A stretch of DNA of 64,000 bases from assembly GCA_023213235.1 (NCBI GenBank), contig CP096137.1:2728908-2792907 (forward strand), written 5' to 3'. The stretch is from Elusimicrobiota bacterium (GTDB taxonomy: Bacteria > Elusimicrobiota > Elusimicrobia > UBA1565 > UBA9628). Below the pieces are notes generated by a model. The model was not told the origin of the DNA and ran no database searches. It saw only the letters and a program-made list of their open reading frames with translations. Shown here one piece after another: positions 38,351 through 57,167 of the stretch (positions are counted from its first letter, which is position 1; each line of letters opens with the position of its first letter). A program made the translations under genes and the position numbers.

Positions 38351-38428
38351 GGGGCCGTGGTGTAGCTGGCCTAACACGCCGCCCTGTCAAGGCGGAGATC
38401 GCGGGTTCAAATCCCGTCGGCCCCGCCA
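38351..38428 (+). tRNA. tRNA-Asp (anticodon GTC), CCA encoded
   Basis: GGGGCCG-TG-GTGT-AGCTGGCCTA-ACAC-G-CCGCC-CTGTCAA-GGCGG-AGATC-GCGGG-TTCAAAT-CCCGT-CGGCCCC-G-CCA. All four stems pair, with one G-T in the T stem. Confidence 0.9.
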
Positions 38429-40122
38429 GTTTTGACACTCGACGAACCCGTCTCCAGAACAATTCTGGAGGCGGGTTCGCTTGTTTCCGGGCCAAATTCC
38501 GGCCCCTGGAGACCGGCGCAGGGGTCACTATCCAGCCCCACGGCCATCCGCAGCTCCGAGAGCCGGACCTGGCCGATCATCTTCTTGACCAGCTCCCTCT
38601 TCTTGTAGGGCGCCATCTCGGAGAAAACGCGCCCGAAGTCGCGCAGCAGGTCCTTAACGGCGGTCTTTTGGATCATGTTTTTATCCATCTCCTGCGACAT
38701 CCGGTCTAAGGACTCCAGGCTCTTAAGGACCTGACCCCGTCGGCCGATGATCGCGTCGAGGCGCTCCTGCAGAAACTTCTGCGCCTCCCCGGTCATGACA
38801 TCCTTCGTGGCTGCGGCCGAGTGCGCCTCGGCCGTGAGGCGCTTGAGTTCCGCGGCCTGCAACTCTCGCTGTTCGGCGATCTTAGGCAGCTCCTCTCGCA
38901 GCTTGAGGTTGGCCATGGCGACGAGCTTGTCCACCTTGCTCTCGTCACCCAGGAGGTGTTGAAGACGCCATCTGACCAGATCCTCCACCGCCCGCGCCGG
39001 AATCCGGGTGCGGCACTTACGGCACTGGTAATACGAGTGGACAGTCTTGTTCCGACTCGTGCCGGACACGCCGCGCATCTCTCCCGTGCACTTCTCGTCC
39101 GGCTTGTTCTTATCGATGATGCGGTCGCAGCGGAGCAAGCCCTCCCCGAACAAGTAAACATGGCTCGGCTTCCTCACGCCGTTGTGCCTCGTCTTCAAGT
39201 TCGTGCCCATGAGCTTCTGCACGTCGTTGAAGAGCTTGTCGGTCACGATCCGATCCCAGACGGCCGGCACGATCCGATACTCGCCCTGTTGCTTTCCCTT
39301 CTTAGGCTTGTGGTCCAAGCTCCACTTGTTGATCTCGGCTTGACCGATATAGGCGCGGTTCGTCAGGATGCGCTTCACCGTGCTGAACGTGAAGGGTCTA
39401 TCCGTATGCCGCACGCCGCGACGGGACCGGAATCCCTGCATCCTAAACCCGGCCGCGTTGGCCGCCGCCTTCACGGCCTGGATGGAGCCGAGCTTCAAGA
39501 ACTGCCGGAAGAGCCAGACGACGATCTTAGCCTCCCGAGGATTGACCCTCAGATATCCCGGGCGCTTCGGATTGAGATCGAACCCGAACAAACGGTTGCT
39601 CACCCACAAGCCTCTCTCCGAGCGCGCCTGGATGCTGTCTTTCATTCGCTGGGAGTCGACCTCGATCTCGAATTGATTCAGCGCCATCAAGATCGTCATG
39701 ATCAGCCGGCCGTGAGCGCTCGTCGTGTCGATGTTCTCGCGAAGAGAAATGATCGCGCCGTTCTTTTCCTTGAGGATGCGCACGAAGGCGAAGAAATCCT
39801 CGATCGACCTTGAGAAGCGGCTAAGCCCCATGCAAACGATGGTGTTGATCCGGCCCCGCTTCAGGTCCGAGATCAGCCTCTGGTATTCATATCGGCGCGT
39901 GGCCTCGGCGGCCGTCTTAGGTTCCTCCAAGTAGTAGTCGACGACGTTCCACGTATTGGTGGAACCGTCTTCGTTCCGCGAGTCCAACACTTCCTCCGCC
40001 TCCTTCTTCCCCTTAAGGAACTTGTCGACGAATTGCCGCTGATTTTTCAGGGAGCCTTCCTTAACCTTCGCCTGCTTCTTTCCCGACACTCGGATATAAA
40101 CGCCCACGTTTCTGATCATCAC
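38407..40122 (-). CDS. large serine recombinase (resolvase catalytic domain + recombinase domain + zinc ribbon + coiled coil)
   Basis: VGVYIRVSGKKQ (catalytic Ser region), LSRFSRS, GAIISLRENIDTTSAHGRLIMTILMALNQFEIE, then RILTNRAYIGQ, Cys pairs C...C / CRKC, and a long helical tail. The last 22 nt including the stop overlap tRNA-Asp. Confidence 0.85.
   Translation of the reverse strand: MMIRNVGVYIRVSGKKQAKVKEGSLKNQRQFVDKFLKGKKEAEEVLDSRNEDGSTNTWNVVDYYLEEPKTAAEATRRYEYQRLISDLKRGRINTIVCMGLSRFSRSIEDFFAFVRILKEKNGAIISLRENIDTTSAHGRLIMTILMALNQFEIEVDSQRMKDSIQARSERGLWVSNRLFGFDLNPKRPGYLRVNPREAKIVVWLFRQFLKLGSIQAVKAAANAAGFRMQGFRSRRGVRHTDRPFTFSTVKRILTNRAYIGQAEINKWSLDHKPKKGKQQGEYRIVPAVWDRIVTDKLFNDVQKLMGTNLKTRHNGVRKPSHVYLFGEGLLRCDRIIDKNKPDEKCTGEMRGVSGTSRNKTVHSYYQCRKCRTRIPARAVEDLVRWRLQHLLGDESKVDKLVAMANLKLREELPKIAEQRELQAAELKRLTAEAHSAAATKDVMTGEAQKFLQERLDAIIGRRGQVLKSLESLDRMSQEMDKNMIQKTAVKDLLRDFGRVFSEMAPYKKRELVKKMIGQVRLSELRMAVGLDSDPCAGLQGPEFGPETSEPASRIVLETGSSSVKTGGADGI
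38445..38487 (+). terminator. intrinsic terminator-like hairpin after tRNA-Asp
   Basis: GAACCCGTCTCCAGAA-CAA-TTCTGGAGGCGGGTTC (16-bp stem with one T-G pair) followed by GCTTGTTT. It lies inside the 3' end of the recombinase ORF on the other strand. Confidence 0.6.
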
Positions 40123-42892: not shown

Positions 42893-45174
42893 TTGAAGCT
42901 ATTTATTAACTCGTTAAATGAATACCGTGACGCCACGTTTTTCAAAAACGCATTCCGCCTACTCGGCTTGCCTGGGATTTCCCAGTTGGATTCAATCCAA
43001 AAGGCCGAGGGAGCACTGCGTCGAGCGCTAAAACTTAAGGCCCTTAAGCCGACAGCCTGGGATCTCCCTGGCTGGGCCCCCTCGATCGCACGGAGCCGAG
43101 CGTTCGCGAAGCCCTCGGGAACCTCACAAGCAATCCGCTGGGCCGCTTGAACGAACGCATCTTCTGGTTCGATGGCGATATTCCTCCGGCGTCGCTTGGC
43201 AAGGACTTGCTCGATCAGGCCCTAGAGAACACTTTGGCCGGCGGAGCCATGGAGAGCGTCCATGATCACGCCCTCTTATGCCTTCTAGCAGCAATTCACA
43301 ATGACCCCGATTTTCGAGATCCTCAGCGCTGGGCTAAGGCCTTCGAAGCCTGGAAACGCCTCGCTGATGACGAAGATTATTGGGGTGCTGTCCTGGAATC
43401 AGAGATGGGCGGCGGGTTCGAGCCTGCCGCGACTGCCGATGAGATCGAACAAGTCCGCGGCAAGATTCTCGCCCAAGTCGCCGACATCGTGGCAGGGATG
43501 GCTCGTGAAGCCGTAGCACAAGGGCAGGATGATCGCTTTCAGCGCGCTGTAAAAGCACTCCGCGCCTCTGATCTGCCGACAGACCTGGTGACCAAGGTCG
43601 AGAACGAGACCTTCGGCTCACGAGAAGACAGCTTCTCGTCGAGGTGCACGGCCCTCCGCCGCGAATGTGGCGATAAGATTGAACGGGATGAAGCCGGCGT
43701 GGACGGCAATAGGGCAGCCTGCGCCGCGGCGTTAGCGAAGTTTGATGCGGAGCTTCAGCCCGAACTGTTCAAGCTGACGAGCTTAGCCGGTGCCACCAGT
43801 GACATTAGCCGTCGCTCGCGAGAAGCTGCTGCGTCGCTTTTGATGAGCATCGCGATCGACTACACTTGGGCCAACGAATTCATCACTAGCGAGAAGCTCC
43901 TAAACCGAGCTAAAGAATTGGCCCCCGAGGACTCGATAGTTAGCGAGAAGATCGAGGAGCAACTATCCGACGTCGCCGAGGCCGCTCAAAGTCAGCGGTT
44001 TCCGAAGGGATCTAAGCCTCTTGGCGACACCCCAGAGGATAAATTCGAGGCGCTTTGCATGGCGGTTCGAGTGAAATGCCGAGACAGCATTCGCCGAGAG
44101 GATGACGGCGTGTCGGCGAACCGGAAGGCCTGCGAAGCAGCCCTCGGTCGCTTCGACACTGAAATAAAACCCTCTCTAGAGCAATTGCTCAAAACAGTCG
44201 GCGCCGACTCTCCCGAAGGCCGCAGGGCACGGGACACAGCTGCGATGTGCCTGCATAGCATAGGGATCGATTTGACTTGGGCTAACGAGTTCAAGATCGC
44301 GGAAGCCACTCTCGGTGAAGGACTCGCCCTCGTGCCGCCAAAATCCGCAACAGCCCGCAAAATTGCGGATTCTCTCGAGAAGTTTCCTCGCTCGAAGTCC
44401 AAAAAGGAATCACCGAAGGCCCCCTCCGGGCGGTCCAGCGCCGCCAACGACAAGCCTGCTGCTCGGAAGCGTGAATGGGAACGGATAGACCCAATAAAAT
44501 CGGCGCCGGAGCTGCGCACGATCAACGGGATAGGGTTCACGCTCTATGGCAACACGGACCCAGAACCAATTGATCCCAAATCGGGTTACACAGGAAATTC
44601 CTACCTGACGACGTATTATTTCGTTGTTCTCGCAATCCCGGTCATTCCAATCGCTCGGTATCGAGTCATCTACACGGGAGATAAGCGCTACCTGTTCCTG
44701 CACAAAGCCCCTCTCAGGACTTTCGACAAAGTGCACCTTGGGATTTCAATCGCTCTCTGTCTCTGGTTCTTCTTCGCAGTGAATCAAGGCTCAAGCAGCT
44801 CCAGTTACTCAGGTAGCACGTCTTCGAGTTCCAGCTACTCATCTTCTCAGCGCAGCAGATCTTCCCTCCGAACGGATATCGAGAGCAATAAGCGCCGCAT
44901 CCAGGAACTCGAAGGTCAGCTCAAGATCGGGGGCGCGGAGATCGAGCGACTCAAAGGCGAAATCATGCCGCTCAAAAAACAAATTGAGGATTACGAGTCT
45001 GATGCCAAGCTCGGGAACTACGTCGATCAAGATGCCTATCAGAAGGCGATTGACGATCACAACGCTCTGGTTGGCCAGCTGAAGGCCGAAGGAGCAAGCT
45101 ACAAGAAGATTTTCGCGGAATACGATCCACTAGTCGACAAGACGAACGGTCTGATTCGGGAATACAAGAGATAA
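42893..45174 (+). CDS. J-domain-like (no HPD) N-terminus + two internal ~110-aa repeats + two TM helices + Ser-rich linker + coiled coil; frame broken once
   Basis: ORF 42893-43150 (…FFKNAFRLLGLPGISQLDSIQKAEGALRRALKLKALKPTAWDLP) joins the frame of ORF 43147-45174 (WLGPLDRTEPSVREALGNLTSNPLGRLNERIFWFDG…) by a 1-nt shift near 43070-43075. TM helices YYFVVLAIPVIPIA and VHLGISIALCLWFFFAV. SSSSSYSGSTSSSSSYSSS. C-terminal heptad-like region. Confidence 0.6.
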
Positions 45175-45176
45175 AC

Positions 45177-45566
45177 ATGGCAGACGCCGCGACCATCGAG
45201 ACCCCGCTGCAAGCGTTGATCGACTTGGCGATTGACCACTGGCGACTCAGCCGCTGGCTATTGGGCTCCGAGAACGATCGGACCAAGGCGACGCCCAGAC
45301 AGACAGTCAGGCGTTTAGAATCGTTTTTTGCTGATCGTGAGATTTCCATCCTCGACATCACCGGCAGGCCCTATGAAGCCGGGCTGCCCGTTGAGGTGCC
45401 GGATACAATCGACGATCCGAATCTGCCGAACGGCGAAATTGTCGTTGATGAAGTCCTGTCCCCCATCATTCTGTGGCGCAAGAACGTGGTCCGTCACGCC
45501 AAAATTGTAGTCCGCCGCGGCCAAGGCGCGCCGAAGGCGACAAGCAGCGAGGACTCTAAGTCATGA
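45177..45566 (+). CDS. mini-GrpE-like nucleotide-exchange-factor homologue
   Basis: 129 aa. LQALIDLAIDHWRL and ITGRPYEAGLPVEVPDTIDDPNLPNGEIVVDEVLSPIILWRKNVVRHAKIVVRRG align by eye with GrpE (LLPVIDSLDRAL ... G.PFDP..H.A......pg.vv.v...GY....r.lR.A.V.V). The long N-terminal helix of GrpE is absent. Confidence 0.6.
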   Translation: MADAATIETPLQALIDLAIDHWRLSRWLLGSENDRTKATPRQTVRRLESFFADREISILDITGRPYEAGLPVEVPDTIDDPNLPNGEIVVDEVLSPIILWRKNVVRHAKIVVRRGQGAPKATSSEDSKS

Positions 45567-48072
45567 GCAACTTCATCAAATACGGCATCGACCTCGGCAC
45601 CACCAACTCATGCATCGCTCGTTGCGAGGGCACGGATATTCGGGTTTACCCCAACAACGAGCAGATGAACGTCACCCCGTCTGCCGTCCGCCTCCTGAAG
45701 TCGGGACGGCTGATCGTTGGGCAGCGTGCCTACGCAGCTCTCTCAGTCGATCCGGATAACGTCGCCATCGAATTTAAGCGCTGGATGGGCCAAAAGAACA
45801 CAGCGAATTTCCCTGTGGCCGCTCGGACGCTGTCCGCCGAGGAGCTTTCGGCCGAGGTCTTGAAGTCTCTGTGCGAGAACGCCCAACGACACTCGGGCGA
45901 GGAGATCAGGGCTGCAGCCGTCACGGTGCCTGCCGCGTTTGGCGCTCTTCAATGCGAAGCCACTGCCCGAGCTGCACGCCTAGCCGGGCTCGAGGAGAGC
46001 CCGCTCCTGCAAGAGCCGATCGCCGCCGCAATCGCGTATGGCATTGCTCCGGGAGCCAAGGACCAGCGCTGGCTCGTCTTCGACCTTGGCGGCGGAACGC
46101 TCGACGTGGCGATCATTTCTACGCGAAATGGCCGGTTGGCCGTCCTGGAACACCGCGGCAACAATCTTCTGGGCGGCAAGGACATCGACCGCCGGATCGC
46201 GGAGGAGTTCTTGCTGCCTGCGTTGGCCAAGGACTTCGCACTCCCTGAGCCGGGAAGCCCCGAGCACAAACGCCTCCTCCGTCGTCTGATCGCCAAAGCA
46301 GAGGAAGCGAAGATCGAACTCAGCACGGCGCCCAAGGTAGTGGTTAGCCTGATCGATCTTGGGGAAGATACCGCGGGAGAGTCCCTGGAAGGGGAGGTCC
46401 AACTTTCACGCGCGCAACTTGAGCGCACGATGCAGCCCGTTGTCGAAGAATGTCTCCGCCTCACGAAAGAAGCAATTGCAGGCGCCCGGATGGCGGCTGC
46501 GGACCTGGATCGAATCCTGCTGGTAGGCGGCCCGACGCAGAGCCCCCTGATCCGGGCAGCTCTAACAGAGCAGGTCAGCAAGAACGTGGATTTCTCCCTC
46601 GATCCTATGACGGTAGTTGCTCGCGGCGCGGCTCTGTTCGCCGCATCTGTCGAACGAACCTCAAACGCCCCGGCTCCGGCAGCGACCGGGAAGCTTTCCG
46701 CCCAGCTGGCTTTCGACCCGGTGAGTTCGTCTCTACAGTGTCCTGTCTCAGGGCGAGTTGATCATGGCGATGGCGTTCACGCCCATGAGATCAAGATCGA
46801 CTCAGAGGATGGCTTCTGGACGAGCGGCTGGGTGCCCTTGGCGGATGATCTTTTTGAGGTTAACGCCGGACTACAGGAAGACAAGGTTTCACGTTTTTGG
46901 CTCTACGCGCGCGACAAGAATGGCCAGCTCCTTGAAATTGAACCTGGGGAATTCAGCATCCGACAAGGCCTCGTGGTGTCAGCGCCTCCGCTCCCCCATA
47001 CTATTTCGGTCGAAGTCGCGGGCGCCAACGGCAAACCCATGCTCGAGCCCGTATTTGCCCGGAGCACCCCGCTCCCCAACCAGCAGGTGAAGAAGTATCG
47101 GGCTAGCCACACGCTGAATCCAAACGAACCTGGAACTGTCCTGGTTATCAAGCTCTGGGAGGGCGAGGAGCTTTCCGATCCCGAAGCGAACGTCTGGGTG
47201 GGCAAAATGCTCATCGCTTCGGACGACATTCAGCGCGCGATTCCCGAAGGCTCTGAAATTGAACTCTCGATCAATATCGATGCGTCACGGCACATCACTG
47301 TCGAGGCCTTCGTCCCCCATCTAAACAAGCACTTCGCGGATCATGTCTATGTTCCGCAGCGAGACGAGCAGGACTACTCCCACCTGGCCCGCGCCGTCAG
47401 CTCGGAGGTGGAGACCCACAATCAGCGCCTGGAAGAAATCGAAAAGCGTATAGGCGATGGGGATGGCAAGGAAGGAGTTCAAGAGCTTCGCAAGGAGATC
47501 GACAGCCTCTCCCGGGAGCAGACCCCGAGGCCGAGACCTCGGGCACGAGCGATCCAGACAAGGACAAACGGGTCGTCGAACACTCCCGAAGAATCCGCAT
47601 TAAGATCGCCGAACTCGAACGAGGCGCGGGAGTTGAACACGAGAAGGCTGCGCTTACCAACGAGCTGGAGTCCAACGCAGCCGGCACTACCGATGTTATC
47701 GGCCGGTATGGATCAGCCCTTGAAAAGAAGGAACTCGAAATCTTGAAGCGGGATCTCGAGCGCGCCCTCCAAAAGGACGATGATCGTGGCCTTGAGAAGA
47801 TCAACAGCGCGCTCGTCGCTCTTCGCCTGCGGGTCCTCTTTAAGCAGGACTGGTTTTGGAAGGAAGTCTTTGAATCGATGCAGGAGCCGGGTTGCAGCTA
47901 CTTGAACGAAGCTGAGGCGAAGCGCTGGATCGCGCAGGGAAACGCGGCCGTAAAACAAGGCGACGGTGATGGCCTCAGAGAAAGCGTTCGGCAGCTCTGG
48001 AAGCTCCAGACTCCTACGCAGGCGCAGGCGGAGCAGGAGAAGGCTCTACGCTCTGGGCTGAGCAAATACTAG
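45563..48072 (+). CDS. atypical Hsp70-family ATPase with inserted domain and long helical C-terminal extension, frame broken once
   Basis: YGIDLGTTNSCIA, VFDLGGGTLDVAI, LLGGKDID, ILLVGGPTQSPLIR. SBD-beta-like ...ELSINIDASRHITVEAFV. ORF 45563-47746 turns into Arg/Pro-rich text after about 47520, while the frame of ORF 47743-48072 is open upstream (DPEAETSGTSDPDKDKRVVEHSRRIRIKIAELER...). ATGA overlap with the GrpE-like gene. Confidence 0.8.
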
Positions 48073-48074
48073 CC

Positions 48075-49640
48075 ATGAAACCACTCGCGCGCAAACCTAG
48101 CCTGCCGGCGGGAACGGCTATCCCAGACTTCCCGGCGATCACGAAGGCGCTTCATACTGACGCCCTGTGCGAAGTCTATCTTCTGGACCAGACCGAGCAG
48201 GGCAGCCTCCTCCTTGTCGCTCTCCAGGGCACGGGAGACAAGGAGGCCGCGCTTAGCCGGCAACTTACCCAGTGGTGGGCGGATCTTGCCCCGGCGCTCG
48301 AGGTCAAGAGCGCCTTCCGCAAGGGTTCCACAGGAGCCAAGAGACTGGAAGCCGTCATCAAGGTCACCGGGGAGTGGCTTGGCGCACGAAAGGACGAAGT
48401 TGTTGAAGAACAGGAGTTGTTTGCCGTCCTGGGCGCGCTCACAAGTCTCTCAGAGCGCGCGGCTGATGCCGACATGCTTCCGAACCTTCTGCCATCGTTG
48501 CTCTGGAAATCTTTCGCCGGAGCAAAGACACAAATTACGTCCGTTTTCGCTTCCACCCAATCACCCGAGCAGGAAGACGGCCACGTCCGACAGCTGGCCT
48601 CGGTTTTCTATTGGCTTGCTGCAGGAATCGATGTTTCCATTTCAGCTCAGGAGCCCAAGCCTCTCAGCCGCTGGTGCAAGACGGCCGGAACGCGCCTTTC
48701 CTCCGTGATCGGCAGGTGCCTGACCACCGCTAAGAGCCCCGATCGCATTGTTTCCATCGAAGAACTCAGGCAGGCCCTCTCTCAGAACACCGAGGGGCAA
48801 CCTCACGTTCCAAAGAAGAAGAGTCGCGCCGCCAGCGGCAAGTCCGCGAAGGGTCTGGCCAAGGTCGCAGGGATGCACACCTTGAAGGCTCTTCTTGAGC
48901 GTGACATCGTGAAGCCGCTTCGCGATCCTGAGCCGTTTCGACGTTACGGCCTCACAATCCCCAACGGCGTATTGCTGTATGGGCCGCCTGGCTGCGGGAA
49001 AACCTATATCGCACGCCAGCTCGCGGAGGAACTCGGATACTACTTCGCGGAGGTCATCCCCTCGCAAGTCGCCGGAATCCACATCCATGAGACGGTCATG
49101 CGCATCCGCGAGGTGTTCGACACTGCGGCAGAGCGCGCGCCTGCCATCGTCTTTATCGATGAATTTGAGGCCCTGGTGCCCTCCCGCTCAGACCTCGGTG
49201 GCCACCAGCAGTATAAGTCAGAGGAGGTCAATGAGTTTTTAGCACAGCTGAACTCCTGCGCGGATCGAAAGATCTTCGTGATAGCGGCGACAAACGAGCC
49301 GAATAAGATCGACCCAGCGATTCGACGCACGGGCCGCCTCGACAAACTTATCTATGTTGGCCCTCCTGATGCCGAAGCTCGGACCGAAATGCTTCGTCTT
49401 CACCTAGATAGCAGGCCGCTCGACAAATCTCTCGCGGCCGGATCGGTCTCACTGACTCTCGAAGGCTATTCGGCTAGCGACATCAAGTTCTTGGTGGACG
49501 AAGCAGCCCGCCTTGCTCTTGGGCGCGGCGCGCCGATCTCATCTGAAATTCTGATGGAGGCAAGCCGGCAAATCCCTCCTTCAGTGACGAAGGCGGACGA
49601 AAAGCGCTATCAGTCGTTCGAGGAGCGCGGCTCAAAATAG
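48075..49640 (+). CDS. AAA+ ATPase (classic CDC48/FtsH-like clade) with unique ~280-aa N-terminal domain
   Basis: GVLLYGPPGCGKTYIARQLA (Walker A), APAIVFIDEFEAL (Walker B), VIAATNEPNKIDPAIRRTGRLD (sensor 1 / Arg finger), lid SASDIKFLVDEAARLAL. The start is 2 nt after the Hsp70 stop. Confidence 0.85.
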   Translation: MKPLARKPSLPAGTAIPDFPAITKALHTDALCEVYLLDQTEQGSLLLVALQGTGDKEAALSRQLTQWWADLAPALEVKSAFRKGSTGAKRLEAVIKVTGEWLGARKDEVVEEQELFAVLGALTSLSERAADADMLPNLLPSLLWKSFAGAKTQITSVFASTQSPEQEDGHVRQLASVFYWLAAGIDVSISAQEPKPLSRWCKTAGTRLSSVIGRCLTTAKSPDRIVSIEELRQALSQNTEGQPHVPKKKSRAASGKSAKGLAKVAGMHTLKALLERDIVKPLRDPEPFRRYGLTIPNGVLLYGPPGCGKTYIARQLAEELGYYFAEVIPSQVAGIHIHETVMRIREVFDTAAERAPAIVFIDEFEALVPSRSDLGGHQQYKSEEVNEFLAQLNSCADRKIFVIAATNEPNKIDPAIRRTGRLDKLIYVGPPDAEARTEMLRLHLDSRPLDKSLAAGSVSLTLEGYSASDIKFLVDEAARLALGRGAPISSEILMEASRQIPPSVTKADEKRYQSFEERGSK

Positions 49641-49660
49641 CATTCATGGTGATTTTCTAA

Positions 49661-52600
49661 ATGCAGTCTCCCAGCAAAAAGCGGCTTGGCCAACTCTTCG
49701 GCTTCCTGGATAGCCTCAACCAGCTCCGGAACCAGCCGACAAAACTCATTGGAGATCAGCCCTGGGCTCTCTCGTTCCAGGACCTCCCCGATCACCCCTC
49801 GATCGAGCGCGCGGCAATTCTCGATGTCGATGATGATGCCGAGCAGGAAGACAAGAAGCCTCCCGAGGCCGCCGAAGTCGTCAACGACTTCGTTCTCAGA
49901 GTCAGCCGTCCCGAACTGACGAACGCCCCGACTCCCCCGACAACGTCAAGGAGTGGCTTAACCTCGGCTGGGAGCAGCTCGACGGCGTCGTCACCTGCCG
50001 GGAGTCGCGCAATGAAACCACTCCCGAGGGACAAACGGTTATCGTTAGGTTTGACGCTGATCCGGCGCGCGTCAACTCGCTTAAAGAATGGGAGGCGGTC
50101 CGAGCCCAGTGGGTCATCAACGAGCGCCCAGCGCGAGCCGCCATGGCTCTCTTCGAGCGGCTCTACGAGCTTCATGGGCAGATCGAGCGCGAAGGCGAGC
50201 GCTTCGAGCTGATACTAGGCGACGGCATCCTGTCGTGGCGCCGGCCCGAAGGCGGGGTCCTTCATCCCATCCTGCTCAAGAGAATCCAACTGCAGTTTGA
50301 CGCCGATGCGCCTGAATTCAAGTTCGTTGAGACGGGCACTCCGACCGAGATCTATTCGGCGCTTTTCCGCTCGATGAATGATGTCGACGGCAAGCTCCTT
50401 GGAAAGTGCCGCGAGGAAGTTGAAAAACGCGGCTACCACCCCATGGGCGCGGGACTCACCAGCGGGTTCCTCCGCAAATTCGCCCAACTGCTGAACGCTC
50501 AAGGGCAGTATGCCGATTCGCTCCCTTTACGCATAGAGACCGATCATCCCCGGATCAGCCGAAATCCCTACATCTTCCTCCGCTCACGCTCCCTGGGTTT
50601 TACGACGGCCATCGAAGCCATCCTCGAGGACATCCAGAAGCGCGACGAGTTCTCCCCGTCGCTGATGAATATCGTCGGCATCGAGACCCGCCCAAGCGTC
50701 GGGGATATAGACCCCGAGGACTACGTGGAGCCCACTGCCCCGATGGGCAACGAGGACGTCGACATCCTGCTCTCGAAGCCGGCGAATCCCGAACAATTGA
50801 AGCTCGCCCAGCGCCTTGAACAGCATGGGTCCGTCGTTGTCCAAGGACCTCCTGGCACCGGGAAGACGCATACAATCGCCAATCTCCTGGGACATCTTCT
50901 TGCTCAGGGTAAGAGTGTCCTCGTCACCAGTCATACCTCAAAGGCGCTTCGCGTCCTTCGCGAGAAGGTCGTCGAGTCACTCCAGCCCTTGTGCGTCAGC
51001 GTTCTGGAGAGCGACCTGGACAGTCGCAAGCAGCTCGAGGGCTCTGTTTCGAAGATCGTTGAACGGCTGACCTCTTCAGATACAAAGGACCTCCAGCGGC
51101 GCGCCGAGACGCTGACGAAAGCCCGGGCAAACCTGCTGGGGAGATCGAGCAGACGCGTCGCGATCTCATCGGCGCCAGGAATGGCGAATACCGCGACATC
51201 GTGGTGGCAGGCCAGGCCCTCACGCCCAGCGCAGCCGCACGACTCGTTACCTCTCGCCAGAACGACGACTCCTGGATTCCCGCGCCGGTGGTGCTCGGCG
51301 CTCCTATCCCGCTTAGCGAAACCGAACTCCACGAGCTTTATCGAAGCAACGAGGCAGTGACTGCCCACGACGAGAACGAACTTGGCCTCGAACTGCCGGA
51401 GCTGGATGACCTTCCCCATCCCGCTCAATTCAGGCGCGCGGCTGAAAACTATCAGCAACTGTCCCAGCTGGATCGAGACCACGGCATCCGCTTTTGGAAA
51501 GATCAGGCGCCTGAAATCGCGATTCTCTGCGTTAAATGCAACAAGCGAAACAGGGGCCGGGTCCCGCAGGGCGCTGATCGAAAGGAATTTCTTGCGAAGC
51601 TGCGCTGCGGCAACGCCAAGTGCAAGGCGCCTTTCGAATCTTCTGCGACGGAGCCCTTCCACACGGTCGCCCTGACTCCCGAGCGACTGGAAACCCTCCT
51701 CGAGACGACTCGAGAGGCCGCGCAGCTGATCCCTCCCGATCCGCACTGGTCGGCAGAAGCGATCATGGCAGGACTCAAAGGTGGTCCACACCGAGAGCCC
51801 TGGGACAATCTTGTCGCAGAAATTGACGCGCTGACCAAGCTCGCCGGCGAAACCAAGGAACTGATTCTCCGCCACAACCCCTCCATCGCTGCGGCCGTCA
51901 CGCTGGACGAAGCCGAAAGTCGTCTGGTTGAGATACAACAGCACTTTGCTACAGGCGGCAGCCTCTCCTTCTGGAGCTTGCTGACGAAGCCGGCGTGGAA
52001 GAAGCTAATCGCGGCTTGCGCCGTTGAGGGCTCCACACCGGCCAAGAAGGAACATTTTACGGCGCTCCATGCCCATGTTCGCCTCACCGTCTCTCGCAAT
52101 CGTGTCATCACAAGATGGGAACGCATGGTGTCCACGTCGGGCGGCGTAAGCAAAGAAGATCTGGGCGTCAATCCCGAAGCGGTGCTTGAGCAGTTCCGTG
52201 CCGAACTGATTCGCCTGCTCAATTGGCACAGCGACAAGTGGCAGCCGATCCAGACCGAACTGGATGAGATCGGCCTGCTGATGGAGCAGATAATCGAGGG
52301 CATCCCGCCTATCACGTCCGCGACGGGGCCAATCCTTCGTATTCGCACAGCTGCCACGCAGAACCTCCCGCCGATCCTCACCGCTCGGGCCAGCAAGATA
52401 CGGTGGGAGGAAGCGAAGACCTTTATCGACTCGCTGACCACTCGCCTCAAGAGCGCCCCGCGGAAGGCCCGCTCCGAGCATGTTGCAGGTCTGCACACCG
52501 CCGTGGAGACGCTCGACGCCGACAAATATTCCATCGCCTTCGACGGCTTGAGCGTCCTCCTGAACAAGCGCAAGCTGTTGGCCCGCCGCAAGGAATTGCT

Positions 52601-54740
52601 GTCCAAGCTCGCCGCCTCAGCACCTGGATGGGCGGCGGCTATCGAGCATCGGCGCAAGCCCCATGACGGGAGCATTGTTCCCGATGGCATTCAGCAAGCA
52701 TGGCTTTGGCGGCAGCTCCACGATGAGATTGAACTGCGGAATAGCGTTTCTGCCGAAGAGCTGCAGGCCCGCCTCGAAACCCTAACGGGGACGCTCCAGA
52801 CGACTACGGCCGAGCTGATCGACAAACGGGCCTGGGCAGCGCAGGTCGATAAGACCTCCCATACCCAGCGCCAAGCCCTCACTGGGTGGGTCGAGACGAT
52901 CCGCCGCATCGGGCGAGGCACCGGCCGCCGCGCGCCGCGACTTGAGGTCGAAGCTCGCAAGCTGATGGGAGATTGCCGCTCAGCCGTTCCCGTTTGGATC
53001 ATGCCCCTTTCTCGAGTAGTCGAGAATTTTGACCCCGCAAAACGCGCTTCGACGTGGTCGTGGTCGATGAAGCGAGCCAGCTCGATGTCATGGGCCTAAT
53101 AGCGCTTTATATGGCCGATCAAGTCGTCATCGTCGGCGACCATGAGCAGGTCAGCCCCGAGGCCGTCGGCCAGAAGCTGGACGAAGTTCAGCACTTGATC
53201 GACGAGCACCTGGGAGAAGTGCCGAACGCGAATCTATACGACGGCAAGCTGTCAGTCTACGATCTGGCGAAGACCGCCTTCGGCGGTCAGCTCTGCCTTC
53301 GCGAGCACTTCCGCTGCGTCGAAGAGATCATTCAGTTCAGCAATCACCTCTGCTACCACGGCCAGATTAGACCCCTCCGGGACTCCTCCACCGTCCCCCT
53401 CAAGCCCCACATCCTCGAGCACCGAGTCGATGGGCAGTGCGATCAGAACAACGTAAATCACAACGAATCTCTCGCAGTTGCGTCGCTAATTGCAGCGGCG
53501 ATTAAGCAGCCCGAATACCGGGGCAAGACCTTCGGAGCCATCTCGCTGCTCGGCGACGAGCAGGCACGCGACATCGAGAGCATGCTCCGCAGGCATTTGG
53601 CGCCCGCCATCTTCGAGGAGCGCCGCATCAGTGTGCGGCAATGCAGCGCACTTCCAAGGTGACGAGCGCGATGTGATGTTCCTCACCCTCGTGGATTCGC
53701 CGCAGGGAACGCCCCACCCCTTCCGGGATCAACCCCTGTTCAGAAAGCGCTTCAACGTGGCCGCCAGCCGTGCCCGCGACCAGATGTGGATCGTGCACTC
53801 CCTCAACGCGGAGCGAGATCTCCAGCCCGGCGACCTTCGGCGCCGTCTGATCCAGCATGCACAGGACCCGATGGCGACCGTCCGTTTGCTTCAAAAGGAA
53901 GAGGCCCGAACGGACTCTGAATTTGAGCGCCAAGTCCTTGCCAGGCTCGTAGACGCAGGCTATCGCGTCAAGACGCAGTGGCGGGTGGGCTACTACCGGA
54001 TCGACATGGTCGTTGAGGGCAATGCGGCCCGCCTGGCTGTTGAATGCGACGGCGACAAATACCACACCATGGAGAATCTCCATGAAGACATGGCTCGCCA
54101 GTCGGTTCTCGAGCGCCTCGGCTGGAAGTTCATCCGGATCAGAGGCACTCGGTTCTTCCGCCGGCCCGACCAAGAAATTCAGCGCATCCTGGACAAGCTC
54201 AACGCGCTCGGCATTGAAAAATTGGGGGCGTCCAACGATCAGCAGCAAGCCCAGGCTGGCAACCAAGAATTGACCGACCGCCTGAACCGTGCTGCGGAAG
54301 AGATTCGCCAGCTATGGGCCTCAGACCCAGCCTACGTCTACGAGGAGGTGCCTGCCAAGCAACGGCGCTCCTCCTCCTGGAAGAAGCAAGCCCCCGGCAC
54401 CGCCTGGGGCAGGCAGCGGCACCCCGAGCCGCCTGCAGCACCCAAACCGGCCCAAGAAGACGAGCTGCCTCTCGAGATCGATGAGCCCGAAACTGATGGC
54501 CGCAAGATCGACGACATCCCGCAAGAAGATATTCGCGAAGCCCTCCGGAACCTTGTCCCCAAAGGTGCTCGAGTTCCCCGGGAAGAGCTTTTAAAGAAAC
54601 TCGTGTCCGCTCTGGGGCAACAGCGCCTCGGTCGCAAGATTCGCAGTCGCCTTAACCGGGCTATTGGCGGCGAGACCCGGGCTGGTAATCTTGAGACCGA
54701 TTGGGACTTTGTCTGGAGGTCGCCTGATTCAGGGTCTTAG
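49661..54740 (+). CDS. DUF4011-type Upf1/DNA2-like SF1 helicase with large inserted region and C-terminal Vsr/DUF559-like endonuclease domain, frame broken four times
   Basis: Joins near 49935, 51140, 53040 and 53630 link ORFs 49661-50212, 50143-51360, 51201-53099, 53054-53662 and 53490-54740. [16 protein letters not shown] (DUF4011-like). [18 protein letters not shown] (motif I). [11 protein letters not shown] (motif II). [67 protein letters not shown]...[12 protein letters not shown] (nuclease). Zn ribbon CVKCNK...CGNAKC in the insert. Confidence 0.8.
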
Positions 54741-57167
54741 GAAACAGCTCAACCGAGTAAAGAGCTATGGGCAACACCTAACCAAGAAAGGCCGAATATA
54801 TTTCTGGTTCGCTTCCGCCTGGGTCCGGCGAAAGAAGCAAAATATCCAAGAAGGTTCGAATTGGATACTGCGCGGCGTCGCCCTTCTAGCTTGCATTGCC
54901 GCCGCTTACCTCCTCCCTAGAGCAATACCGCCATCAGTATCCAGCTCAAGCTGGATGACAATTTTCCTCACAGCCGGCGCGATGGCTGGAGGCATAATTG
55001 CGATCGTATTTTCTCTATCAACATTTTCCCTTCAAAACTCTGCGGACCTATTCTCATCCGAGTTTTTGAACGCTACGCATATGGCTGGAAGGACAAGCTC
55101 ACATATTGGTTCGTCGCGGGCTCAGTTCTTGCACTTTTCGTCGGCGCCGTTGCTATCGATGGACCCTCGACCCTCGGCCGAGACCACCCCTCACTAGCGC
55201 TCCTGGTTCTCCTGTTAGCAATTGCAATCATTTTCGTTCTAGTCGACTGGCAGTATGAAAGTGTCCGGCAACGAACAAGCCCCCTACACGCACTTCAATT
55301 CATGGAGGCTCAAACAGCGGAGTTCCTACAGCGGATACACCGAGCCGCCATCGATGCATCCCGTCTTGTAAAACTTGAGCAAGCGGAACTGCCTGATGAG
55401 GCCGCACTTGCGCGTGTCTACAACCTGGGACTCCGATCTGCTCTAGGGGCATTCGATAGGCGATTAGAGGTGCTTTCGGATATTTCGCTTCGCTTGGCAT
55501 CAAGGCAGGACTCGTTCGCAGCCAAGAGAGGATTTGACTGCATTACGCGTCTTTTGGGCGCCTATCTCGAAGCCCGCAAGGGGTCTTCATTAATTTTGCC
55601 GACCGATATCCCCTTCGCCTTCGAGAGCGACAGCAGCAATCTACTTCGGCGGACTTTTGAACGGATGAATGCCGCCGGCGAAAGCTTTATGACCAGCGGT
55701 CAGAGCGCCATCGCCGCGCATCTCGTCTATGTATACGAAGCTCTAGCAGACAAGGCCCGTTCAATTCGTTTCCTCGGTGCCCAGCGAAATGAGAACCCTA
55801 TATTCTCAGACATCCAGGGCTACCATAGGCAATATCTAGACGCTGCTGTGCGGAAGAAGGATCTCGAGGTCGTTTTCCAGGGGTCCCGAGTCCTGGGACG
55901 GATGGCTCATTGGGCAGTGCAGCACAATTTAAATTACATCCTTAGCGCCGTTCAGAAGGACCTTGGTCACGTCGCACGGATTGGAATCCTAAACGGGGCG
56001 ACCTACATAACCCAAAATTCCTTCGACGCCTGGCTCGGCATCATCTCTCAGGCATTCGCCTCGGGCTATGAACCCCTAAAGCATGAGCTTAAGGAAGCGT
56101 TCAGGAATATCACGGGCACAACGGCACTTTATCATCAAGCGATCAAATCGGGTCTAGTCGCGAACGATTTCTCAGATCATCTCTTGCTCTCTAGACCCTA
56201 TGATGGCCTTCCTGCAATTCTTGCTGCAATCGTGCGCAGGCACGACGAGCTAACTGAAGCCGGACAGCAAGCCCGCTACCGCCGAGGGATCGTCGATTTG
56301 TTCGACGAAATGAACGGGAGCCTCAGACTCTTAAGCGAACAACTCCGCAGCTGCGATAGCCCGGCTATTGGACCAATTGGCCGATTACTATTCGCAAGCA
56401 ATCAGATCATCCTACATCTCCTGGCCAAGCCAGATTTCGCGGATGTCCACGCTGACCTTTTAAGAAGGCTACGGTGGAATGTTCATCTTCCCGAATGGTT
56501 TTACCATCATGCCGACTCGATCCAGAGCAACGTCCTCGATAGAGAATTGTCGGAGAGTGTTTTACGAACTGGAATCCTGCTCTTCTCAAATGGGCGAGAT
56601 GTTGACACGATCAAGGATTGCATCAATGCCATCTCATCGATAGCCCACTCTTGTCTCAAGAAAAAGAGCAAGAGCTATGGCTTTGATGAACCGCGTCTCA
56701 TGCTGGGGGTCTGCTACCTCGGCATTCTTGCCCGTAAGCATGGCCTCGAGACTGTCTGGGTTCATGCAGGATTGAAGATTTACGAGTTCGAAGATTCCTA
56801 TGCCCAGAAATACCTCAAGGACGTTGTGCTCCCCGAGGGCGTTGACCGGAATTCTGTAATTGGCCTTCCTCGGGAAGACCAGCTATTCACGGAACTCTTC
56901 GGATGGGCAAGCGATTTCAATCACCGGCGCCTGAACGACATGCGTCTTGGAACATCAGCCGATGAGATGCTCTATGACTTGATTAGCACGTCCGATATCC
57001 ATCGCTTCATGTATGAAGTCTGGGAATCCTATCCGGCCAGCAGCCCTATTGCTGACGAAATTCGCGAACAGCGGCAGCGAGCAGCTATAAATTCGCGACT
57101 TCTTCGGGTTTTCCGCCAGGTGCTCGCTCAGAAGCGACGCGAGGCCGGGCCTAGGGTGCAACAATGA
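54664..57167 (+). CDS. large membrane-anchored all-helical protein of unknown function, frame broken once; start uncertain
   Basis: Four hydrophobic helices ([73 protein letters not shown]), then about 620 aa of helical sequence. A shift at T5 run 55062-55066 joins ORF 54664-55197 to the frame of ORF 55302-57167. Confidence 0.5.

Follow-up and report, generated by a model that had tools for sequence, protein, structure and literature searches.

In a window of 64,000 nucleotides from an Elusimicrobiota bacterium (assembly GCA_023213235.1, contig CP096137.1, positions 2,728,908 to 2,792,907), we analysed a gene at 49661-54740 that would encode, once its four frame breaks are bridged, a helicase-nuclease of about 1,693 aa. 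The gene and all of its parts given below lie on the plus strand. Our preferred reading, to which we assign a probability of roughly 60%, is that the gene specifies a single polypeptide, that its breaks are artefactual and that the product is a stand-alone enzyme directed against phages or mobile DNA. The protein belongs to a family that is large, unnamed and patchily distributed, and whose genes stand alone in other genomes.

Five open reading frames (ORFs) tile the gene (49661-50212, 49837-51360, 51063-53099, 53033-53662 and 53490-54740), lying in frames 2, 1, 0, 2 and 0 in this order. A preliminary description of the DNA had joined them into one protein of ~1,690 aa, and this reconstruction holds: the read-through contains zero in-frame stops, and a search with it returned more than 1,800 relatives, of which the 120 listed are about 1,500-1,780 aa long, 44-52% identical and cover 91-100% of the query. 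Homologue alignments begin at residue 6 of the window protein, and intact relatives are continuous through conserved sequence at every junction. Given these intact homologues and a match to the nuclease profile MTES_1575 at E 1.1e-32, the stretch 49661-54740 is, judged from its sequence, a single gene, far beyond chance.

Domain anatomy and conservation of the family

The read-through protein would consist of a 380-aa alpha/beta N-domain, helicase motif I, a helical insert of 728 residues, motifs II-VI, a Vsr-like nuclease and a DUF3320-like tail. The first of the five pieces (49661-49939) supplies the N-terminal 93 aa, and the second (49939-51138) comprises the alpha/beta N-domain and motif I and reaches ~90 residues into the insert that separates motif I from motif II. 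Most of this insert is made up by the helical domain of piece 3 (51141-53036). Piece 4 (53042-53629) continues with motifs II and III and the beginning of RecA domain 2, and piece 5 (53631-54740) completes the protein with motifs V and VI and the nuclease, then a Pro/acidic linker and the basic tail.

The motifs quoted in the preliminary description were all recovered in place. These include a 16-residue motif of the N-domain (50206-50253), the ten-residue motif I or Walker A (50845-50874; matched in Pfam) and motif II, VVVVDEASQ (53054-53080). Piece 4 also carries VGDHEQVSP (53132-53158), and piece 5 FQGDERDV (53652-53675) and NVAASRARD (53754-53780). The protein has motifs I, II, III, V and VI and matches Pfam AAA_11 above its gathering score, as do Upf1-like helicases of superfamily 1B (SF1B), to which we assign it because the family profile matches Sen1, Upf1, DNA2 and IGHMBP2 in the PDB. 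The AAA_11 match is split by the insert, with 42.9 and 27.9 bits on the two halves, and amounts to 61-68 bits on intact homologues; AAA_12 is matched as well (39.7-48.8 bits on homologues). Helicase motifs, AAA_11 and AAA_12 are shared with Sen1, Upf1, DNA2, IGHMBP2 and the helicase parts of the Mokosh proteins MkoA and MkoC. In contrast to the 700-aa helical domain found here, however, the Upf1-like helicases and Mokosh possess small 1B/1C insertions, and their accessory and nuclease domains are different ones.

The Vsr-like nuclease domain (53922-54200) matches MTES_1575 over profile positions 1-96 of 96 with 112.4 bits (cut-off 38.2) and DUF559 with 37.5 bits (cut-off 20.6, E 2.4e-9). It contains the motifs YRIDMVV (53994-54014), VECDGDKYH (54039-54065) and GWKFIRIR (54120-54143), and the residues RID...ECDGD.YH are kept across the family and in DUF4011 proteins. 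A full-length match above the gathering score and conserved acidic and His catalytic residues mark the domain as a nuclease of the Vsr type. With AAA_11, AAA_12, MTES_1575 and DUF559 all matched, the original description of a Upf1/DNA2-type SF1 helicase with a C-terminal Vsr/DUF559-like nuclease is borne out by Pfam matches above the cut-offs, and both the predicted helicase core and the predicted Vsr-type endonuclease domain are intact. The small basic C-terminal domain was located too, at 54516-54647, although its likeness to DUF3320 (PF11784) stays under the 25-bit cut-off (21.9 bits, E 1.8e-4; 26.9 bits for the control DUF4011 protein L113). The tail motif was found in 14 of 103 family members.

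Between motifs I and II lie 728 residues. The preliminary description had presented an insert of ~730 aa with a zinc ribbon, and both the length and the cysteines were confirmed; the insert is not peculiar to this copy, however, but a domain found family-wide. It measures 675-728 aa across the family and has Trp, Arg and Pro residues at invariant positions. A search with the insert alone in 1.84 billion representative proteins gave 1,971 matches, and the insert occupied the same internal position in the 150 listed full-length ones. The family alignment has 464 columns that are at least 90% conserved, many of them inside the insert; the window protein keeps 426 of these 464 columns and 156 of the 159 invariant ones, and intact homologues, tested singly, keep 90-99.8%. 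The helical insert is, as far as alignments can tell, a conserved and family-specific domain. The Cx2C...Cx4C zinc-ribbon mini-insert (51528-51623, with CVKCNK at 51528-51545 and CGNAKC at 51606-51623) is an optional addition of ~40 aa, carried in the sub-clade of the window protein and present at the same site in 10 of 103 members.

A structure prediction had been proposed for the insert. The AF2 model is confident and mostly helical with a small ribbon (mean pLDDT 90.5, pTM 0.71), and no match to its fold was found with Foldseek in the PDB or BFVD (best E 0.21 and 0.08). The N-domain is modelled as alpha/beta with a pLDDT above 90 for residues 1-230, likewise with no Foldseek match in the PDB (best E 0.24). 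The weak matches of insert and N-domain (E 0.08-0.24, TM at most 0.17) were to proteins with long helices in general, SbcC and SMC among them. Neither the N-domain nor the 700-aa insert, both confidently predicted, thus has a solved structural counterpart.

At 50% identity the family comprises 447 clusters when the threshold is E<=1e-30 and 1,971 when it is relaxed to E<=1e-3. A scan of the genome collection found at least 527 matching stretches, and the loci that were kept come from Acidobacteriota, Chloroflexota, Bacillota, Planctomycetota and other phyla. The gene was present in none of 37 genomes of the same genus and in one other among 100 genomes of the order; this sole full-length copy in the order (genome G222) is 52% identical. 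No near-identical copy at the DNA level was detected in 40 relatives, and a search for plasmid carriage gave only two weak plasmid records. A public fragment of 162 aa (P0264) shares 78% identity with the end of the insert, far closer than any full-length homologue, which implies that a nearer relative of the gene exists in public data.

Named relatives and the proposed role

The N-domain had been described as DUF4011-type, an assignment that we reject at the level of Pfam. PF13195, the DUF4011 profile, matched nothing when the genome was searched in six frames at E<=10, had no match in 120 homologues and none at E<=0.1 in P0002 and P0024, and gave 79-135 bits on control DUF4011 proteins. What is left is a weak, collinear profile-profile signal, a hint of distant kinship. 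In hhalign, the helicase C-half and the nuclease align with those of DUF4011 proteins at E 1.6e-36, and a collinear stretch from an 11-residue motif through motif I aligns at E 5.6e-13, a significance owed mostly to the Walker A region; for the N-domain by itself E is 0.46, and the inserts of the family and of DUF4011 proteins do not align.

The preliminary description had noted a likeness to anti-phage helicase-nucleases and had been unable to assign a named family, and both statements stand. The closest named relatives are anti-phage proteins: PADLOC matched PDC-S37 best (7.9e-70, 234 bits), followed by Hhe and MkoC, and the best NCBIfam matches were ProA (210-232 bits, cut-off 1,500) and Hhe (155-172 bits, cut-off 2,000), with 35-82 bits for the window pieces against the Hhe model NF042953. 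Membership of PDC-S37, Hhe or ProA was rejected on score and coverage. From the low-scoring PADLOC and NCBIfam matches, the unmatched PF13195 and the partial profile-profile alignment, we conclude that the family is a sister clade of the DUF4011 proteins covered by PDC-S37, Hhe and ProA, and a member of none of them.

PDC-S37 (PDLC05009; e.g., G053:C5 and G065:C40) resembles the family in being a single gene with the same module order, MTES_1575 and sometimes DUF3320, and in having a giant insert at the same site between motifs I and II (~620 aa in PDC-S37/DUF4011 proteins). In contrast, the profile gives true members 1,296-1,326 bits over its positions 4-1543, whereas the family reaches 186-234 bits over ~44% of its length, matching only positions 298-410 and 891-1459 of 1,550. 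In addition, PF13195 is found in PDC-S37 proteins and is absent from the family, and PDC-S37 is itself only a candidate system. The PDC-S37 proteins at the loci L112 and L113 (G065:C40 and G053:C5) have the order DUF4011, SF1B, MTES_1575, with or without DUF3320. Against the C-terminal half of the NCBIfam Hhe model they reach 560-590 bits, from which it follows that PDC-S37 and Hhe are close relatives.

Hhe of E. coli (NF042953, PDLC02194) likewise unites an SF1 helicase and a Vsr-type endonuclease in one protein, and its motifs I and II are very far apart. Its N-domain and insert differ, however, and the family lacks a DUF4011 match. In ProA (NF058533), the best NCBIfam match, similarity is seen in motif I, over the final ~200 residues of the insert, and in the helicase C-half, nuclease and tail. 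A literature search on PDC-S37 and ProA found nothing. The defence provided by Hhe is abolished in the nuclease mutant E1731A (10.1101/2022.06.16.496414), and its triggers are DNA-metabolism genes of T7 (PMC11482910).

By analogy with Hhe, a single-gene and nuclease-dependent defence with triggers tied to phage DNA metabolism, a stand-alone defence role is likely for the window protein. Sensing or gating would fall to the N-domain and the helical insert; translocation in the 5'-3' direction along foreign or aberrant DNA would be powered by ATP, with the Vsr-like domain cleaving that DNA, as has been proposed for Hhe. Several points speak against this reading. Helicase polarity, substrate and trigger are putative; the family scores much lower against the Hhe, ProA and PDC-S37 models than members would; and no paper on this helicase-nuclease family was found in a literature search. 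Moreover, one homologue lies beside a mutagenesis cassette, imuA-imuB-dnaE2, which would also fit a function in repair. To these points the number of the frame breaks and the position of one of them, considered in the next section, have to be added. At L021 (2319-6918), a homologue is located directly 3' of a mutagenesis cassette of lexA-like, imuB-like, DUF6504 and dnaE2 genes; on its other side come an AAA_21/AAA_15 ATPase with DUF6946, and RmuC.

One alternative, which we regard as rather unlikely, is that the protein is a helicase-nuclease of DNA repair or recombination, serving the host or the island at damaged forks or in island maintenance, and is not immune in function. The solved relatives Sen1, DNA2 and IGHMBP2 act in nucleic-acid maintenance, the position of one homologue directly downstream of lexA-imuA-imuB-dnaE2 points the same way, and in Pseudomonas aeruginosa a DUF4011 gene belongs to the core genome (PMC10250203). 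However, a repair function is less in keeping with the very patchy distribution, including the absence from all same-genus genomes searched, and with the location on an island that also carries PIN, DUF4062 and an adjoining weak, borderline NACHT match. The nearest named relatives are anti-phage proteins, and some immediate neighbours of homologues elsewhere are defence genes, namely genes of type I restriction-modification, PsyrTA (PsyrT), MADS, Dpd (DpdF) and Wadjet (JetA). This neighbourhood, for which there was no control set, is no more than suggestive of a link to defence.

The frame breaks

The first break (-1) lies in a C run at about 49937-49940 (feature 49935-49940), the second (-1) in a G run at about 51138-51141 (feature 51135-51141) and the third (-1) in C/A runs at about 53036-53042 (feature 53034-53044). 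The fourth (+1) is located at about 53629-53631 (feature 53627-53633), away from any homopolymer. A genome-wide detector flagged the first, second and fourth at 49924, 51133 and 53626, respectively. This codon-usage Viterbi frame-switch detector was trained on this genome and run on the single contig of 3.80 Mb, with 284 kb of two same-genus draft genomes as controls.

The four breaks are probably assembly errors of the homopolymer type, with the gene intact in the organism. The detector reported 1,146 direct same-strand candidates, or 30 per 100 kb, evenly spread, against 4.1 and 5.5 per 100 kb in the controls, an excess of about 950. Three quarters (75%) of the switches are at most 15 nt from a run of four or more identical bases, compared with 21% of random sites; 86% are of the deletion type and 67% are at G/C runs. 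The switch rate per run rises from 2% for 4-mers through 8% for 5-mers to 23-29% for 6- and 7-mers. Completeness of this single-contig genome is only 83.6%. The Hsp70-like gene upstream is broken in like manner, near 47520 in a CCC/GGG/CCCC context, while its orthologue in G128, a genome of another genus in the same family, is in one frame. The "109-aa ORF" at 47743-48072 corresponds to the C-terminal tail of this Hsp70-like gene (45563-48072).

Genuine stops that split the stretch into separate genes had been envisaged in the preliminary description; the read-through holds no such in-frame stop, and breaks of the kind that it does show are best explained by errors of assembly. A real pseudogene, in which some or all of the four frameshifts are genuine and a helicase-nuclease on the island was recently inactivated, e.g., through self-toxicity, is nevertheless an explanation to which we leave a small share of probability, because the count of four slightly exceeds expectation and one break lies outside any run. 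Four were observed in 5.08 kb where 1-1.7 are expected (P 0.07-0.13); of five breaks that we located in the island part of the window (25.6 kb), four interrupt the helicase gene; and the +1 break is distant from homopolymers. However, the many similar breaks in excess genome-wide, their dependence on run length and their predominant deletion type all argue for a technical origin, neither in-frame stops nor larger lesions are seen, and the retention of invariant residues is within the range of intact homologues. Programmed frameshifting was dropped, given four sites, both directions and a genome full of such breaks.

The downstream gene is represented by two ORFs in different frames (54664-55197 and 55302-57167), the first of which overlaps the 3' end of the helicase gene by 77 nt. 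Another frame error and an uncertain start codon are probably responsible for the split of this gene (54664-57167). In a genome with about a thousand homopolymer frame errors, gene calls are unreliable until it has been polished, and any "pseudogene", "split gene" or "fusion" taken from this assembly needs polishing first.

Island, neighbouring genes and implications

A tRNA-Asp gene (38351-38428) and a large serine recombinase, together spanning 38351-40122, mark the start of the low-GC island that bears the helicase gene, the GC content of which island is 0.53-0.61, compared with 0.686 for the genome. An Hsp70-like/AAA+ module (43147-49640, plus strand) precedes the helicase gene, and the helicase ATG lies 20 nt past the stop codon of the AAA+ gene (spacer 49641-49660, plus strand), as the preliminary description had reported. 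A weak GGTGA resembling a ribosome-binding site is found 8 nt 5' of the ATG, and no promoter or terminator signal above chance was detected ahead of the gene. The co-expression with the Hsp70 module that had been suggested is supported by the tight co-directional array here, but the link is local and absent at 85 homologous loci. In this genome, the helicase gene is probably co-transcribed with the upstream genes, only through the tight packing of island cargo.

Elsewhere, the homologues have variable neighbours, as seen in three annotated contexts. In tblastn searches with the proteins of the Hsp70 module and the other window neighbours, none was found within 10 kb of 85 homologous loci, and none of the window neighbour proteins was found at the G222 locus. 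The helicase gene is thus without a conserved partner gene, as expected of a single-gene system. Conversely, G128 has a four-gene Hsp70-like/AAA+ module at 69-86% identity without the helicase (L128 = G128:C15, 6576-16763, minus strand), its Hsp70-like orthologue being 81-86% identical and in a single frame. This module is followed tightly by two proteins without Pfam domains (403 and 424 aa), a DUF6804 protein and a NucS_C-like protein, genes that could represent a variable cargo slot. The Hsp70 module was rejected as a conserved partner because of its absence at the 85 loci and in G222 and its occurrence without the helicase in G128.

It is very unlikely, in our view, that the helicase-nuclease is the effector of a multi-gene system in which the Hsp70-like/AAA+ chaperone module activates or unfolds it upon infection. 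The co-directional array, the 20-nt spacer and the lack of a promoter or terminator signal in between would agree with such a system, and the equally tight train of genes behind the G128 module, one of them NucS_C-like, fits a variable effector slot. However, none of the module genes was found near the helicase at the 85 loci, in G222 or in the three annotated contexts, the module exists without the helicase in G128, and tight packing is normal for island cargo. That a swappable effector slot follows a mobile Hsp70-like/AAA+ module, with the chaperone controlling the activation of whichever nuclease-type cargo comes next, is an idea that we likewise consider highly improbable.

The result defines an unnamed, phylum-spanning sister family of the Hhe/PDC-S37-type helicase-nucleases, which the profiles of current defence finders catch only in part. 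If the family defends against phages, the N-domain and the insert would be the obvious candidates for the sensor. Cultured carriers, among them Tengunoibacter tsumagoiensis, Steroidobacter gossypii, Desulfosporosinus metallidurans and Selenomonas ruminantium HD4, make the family testable.

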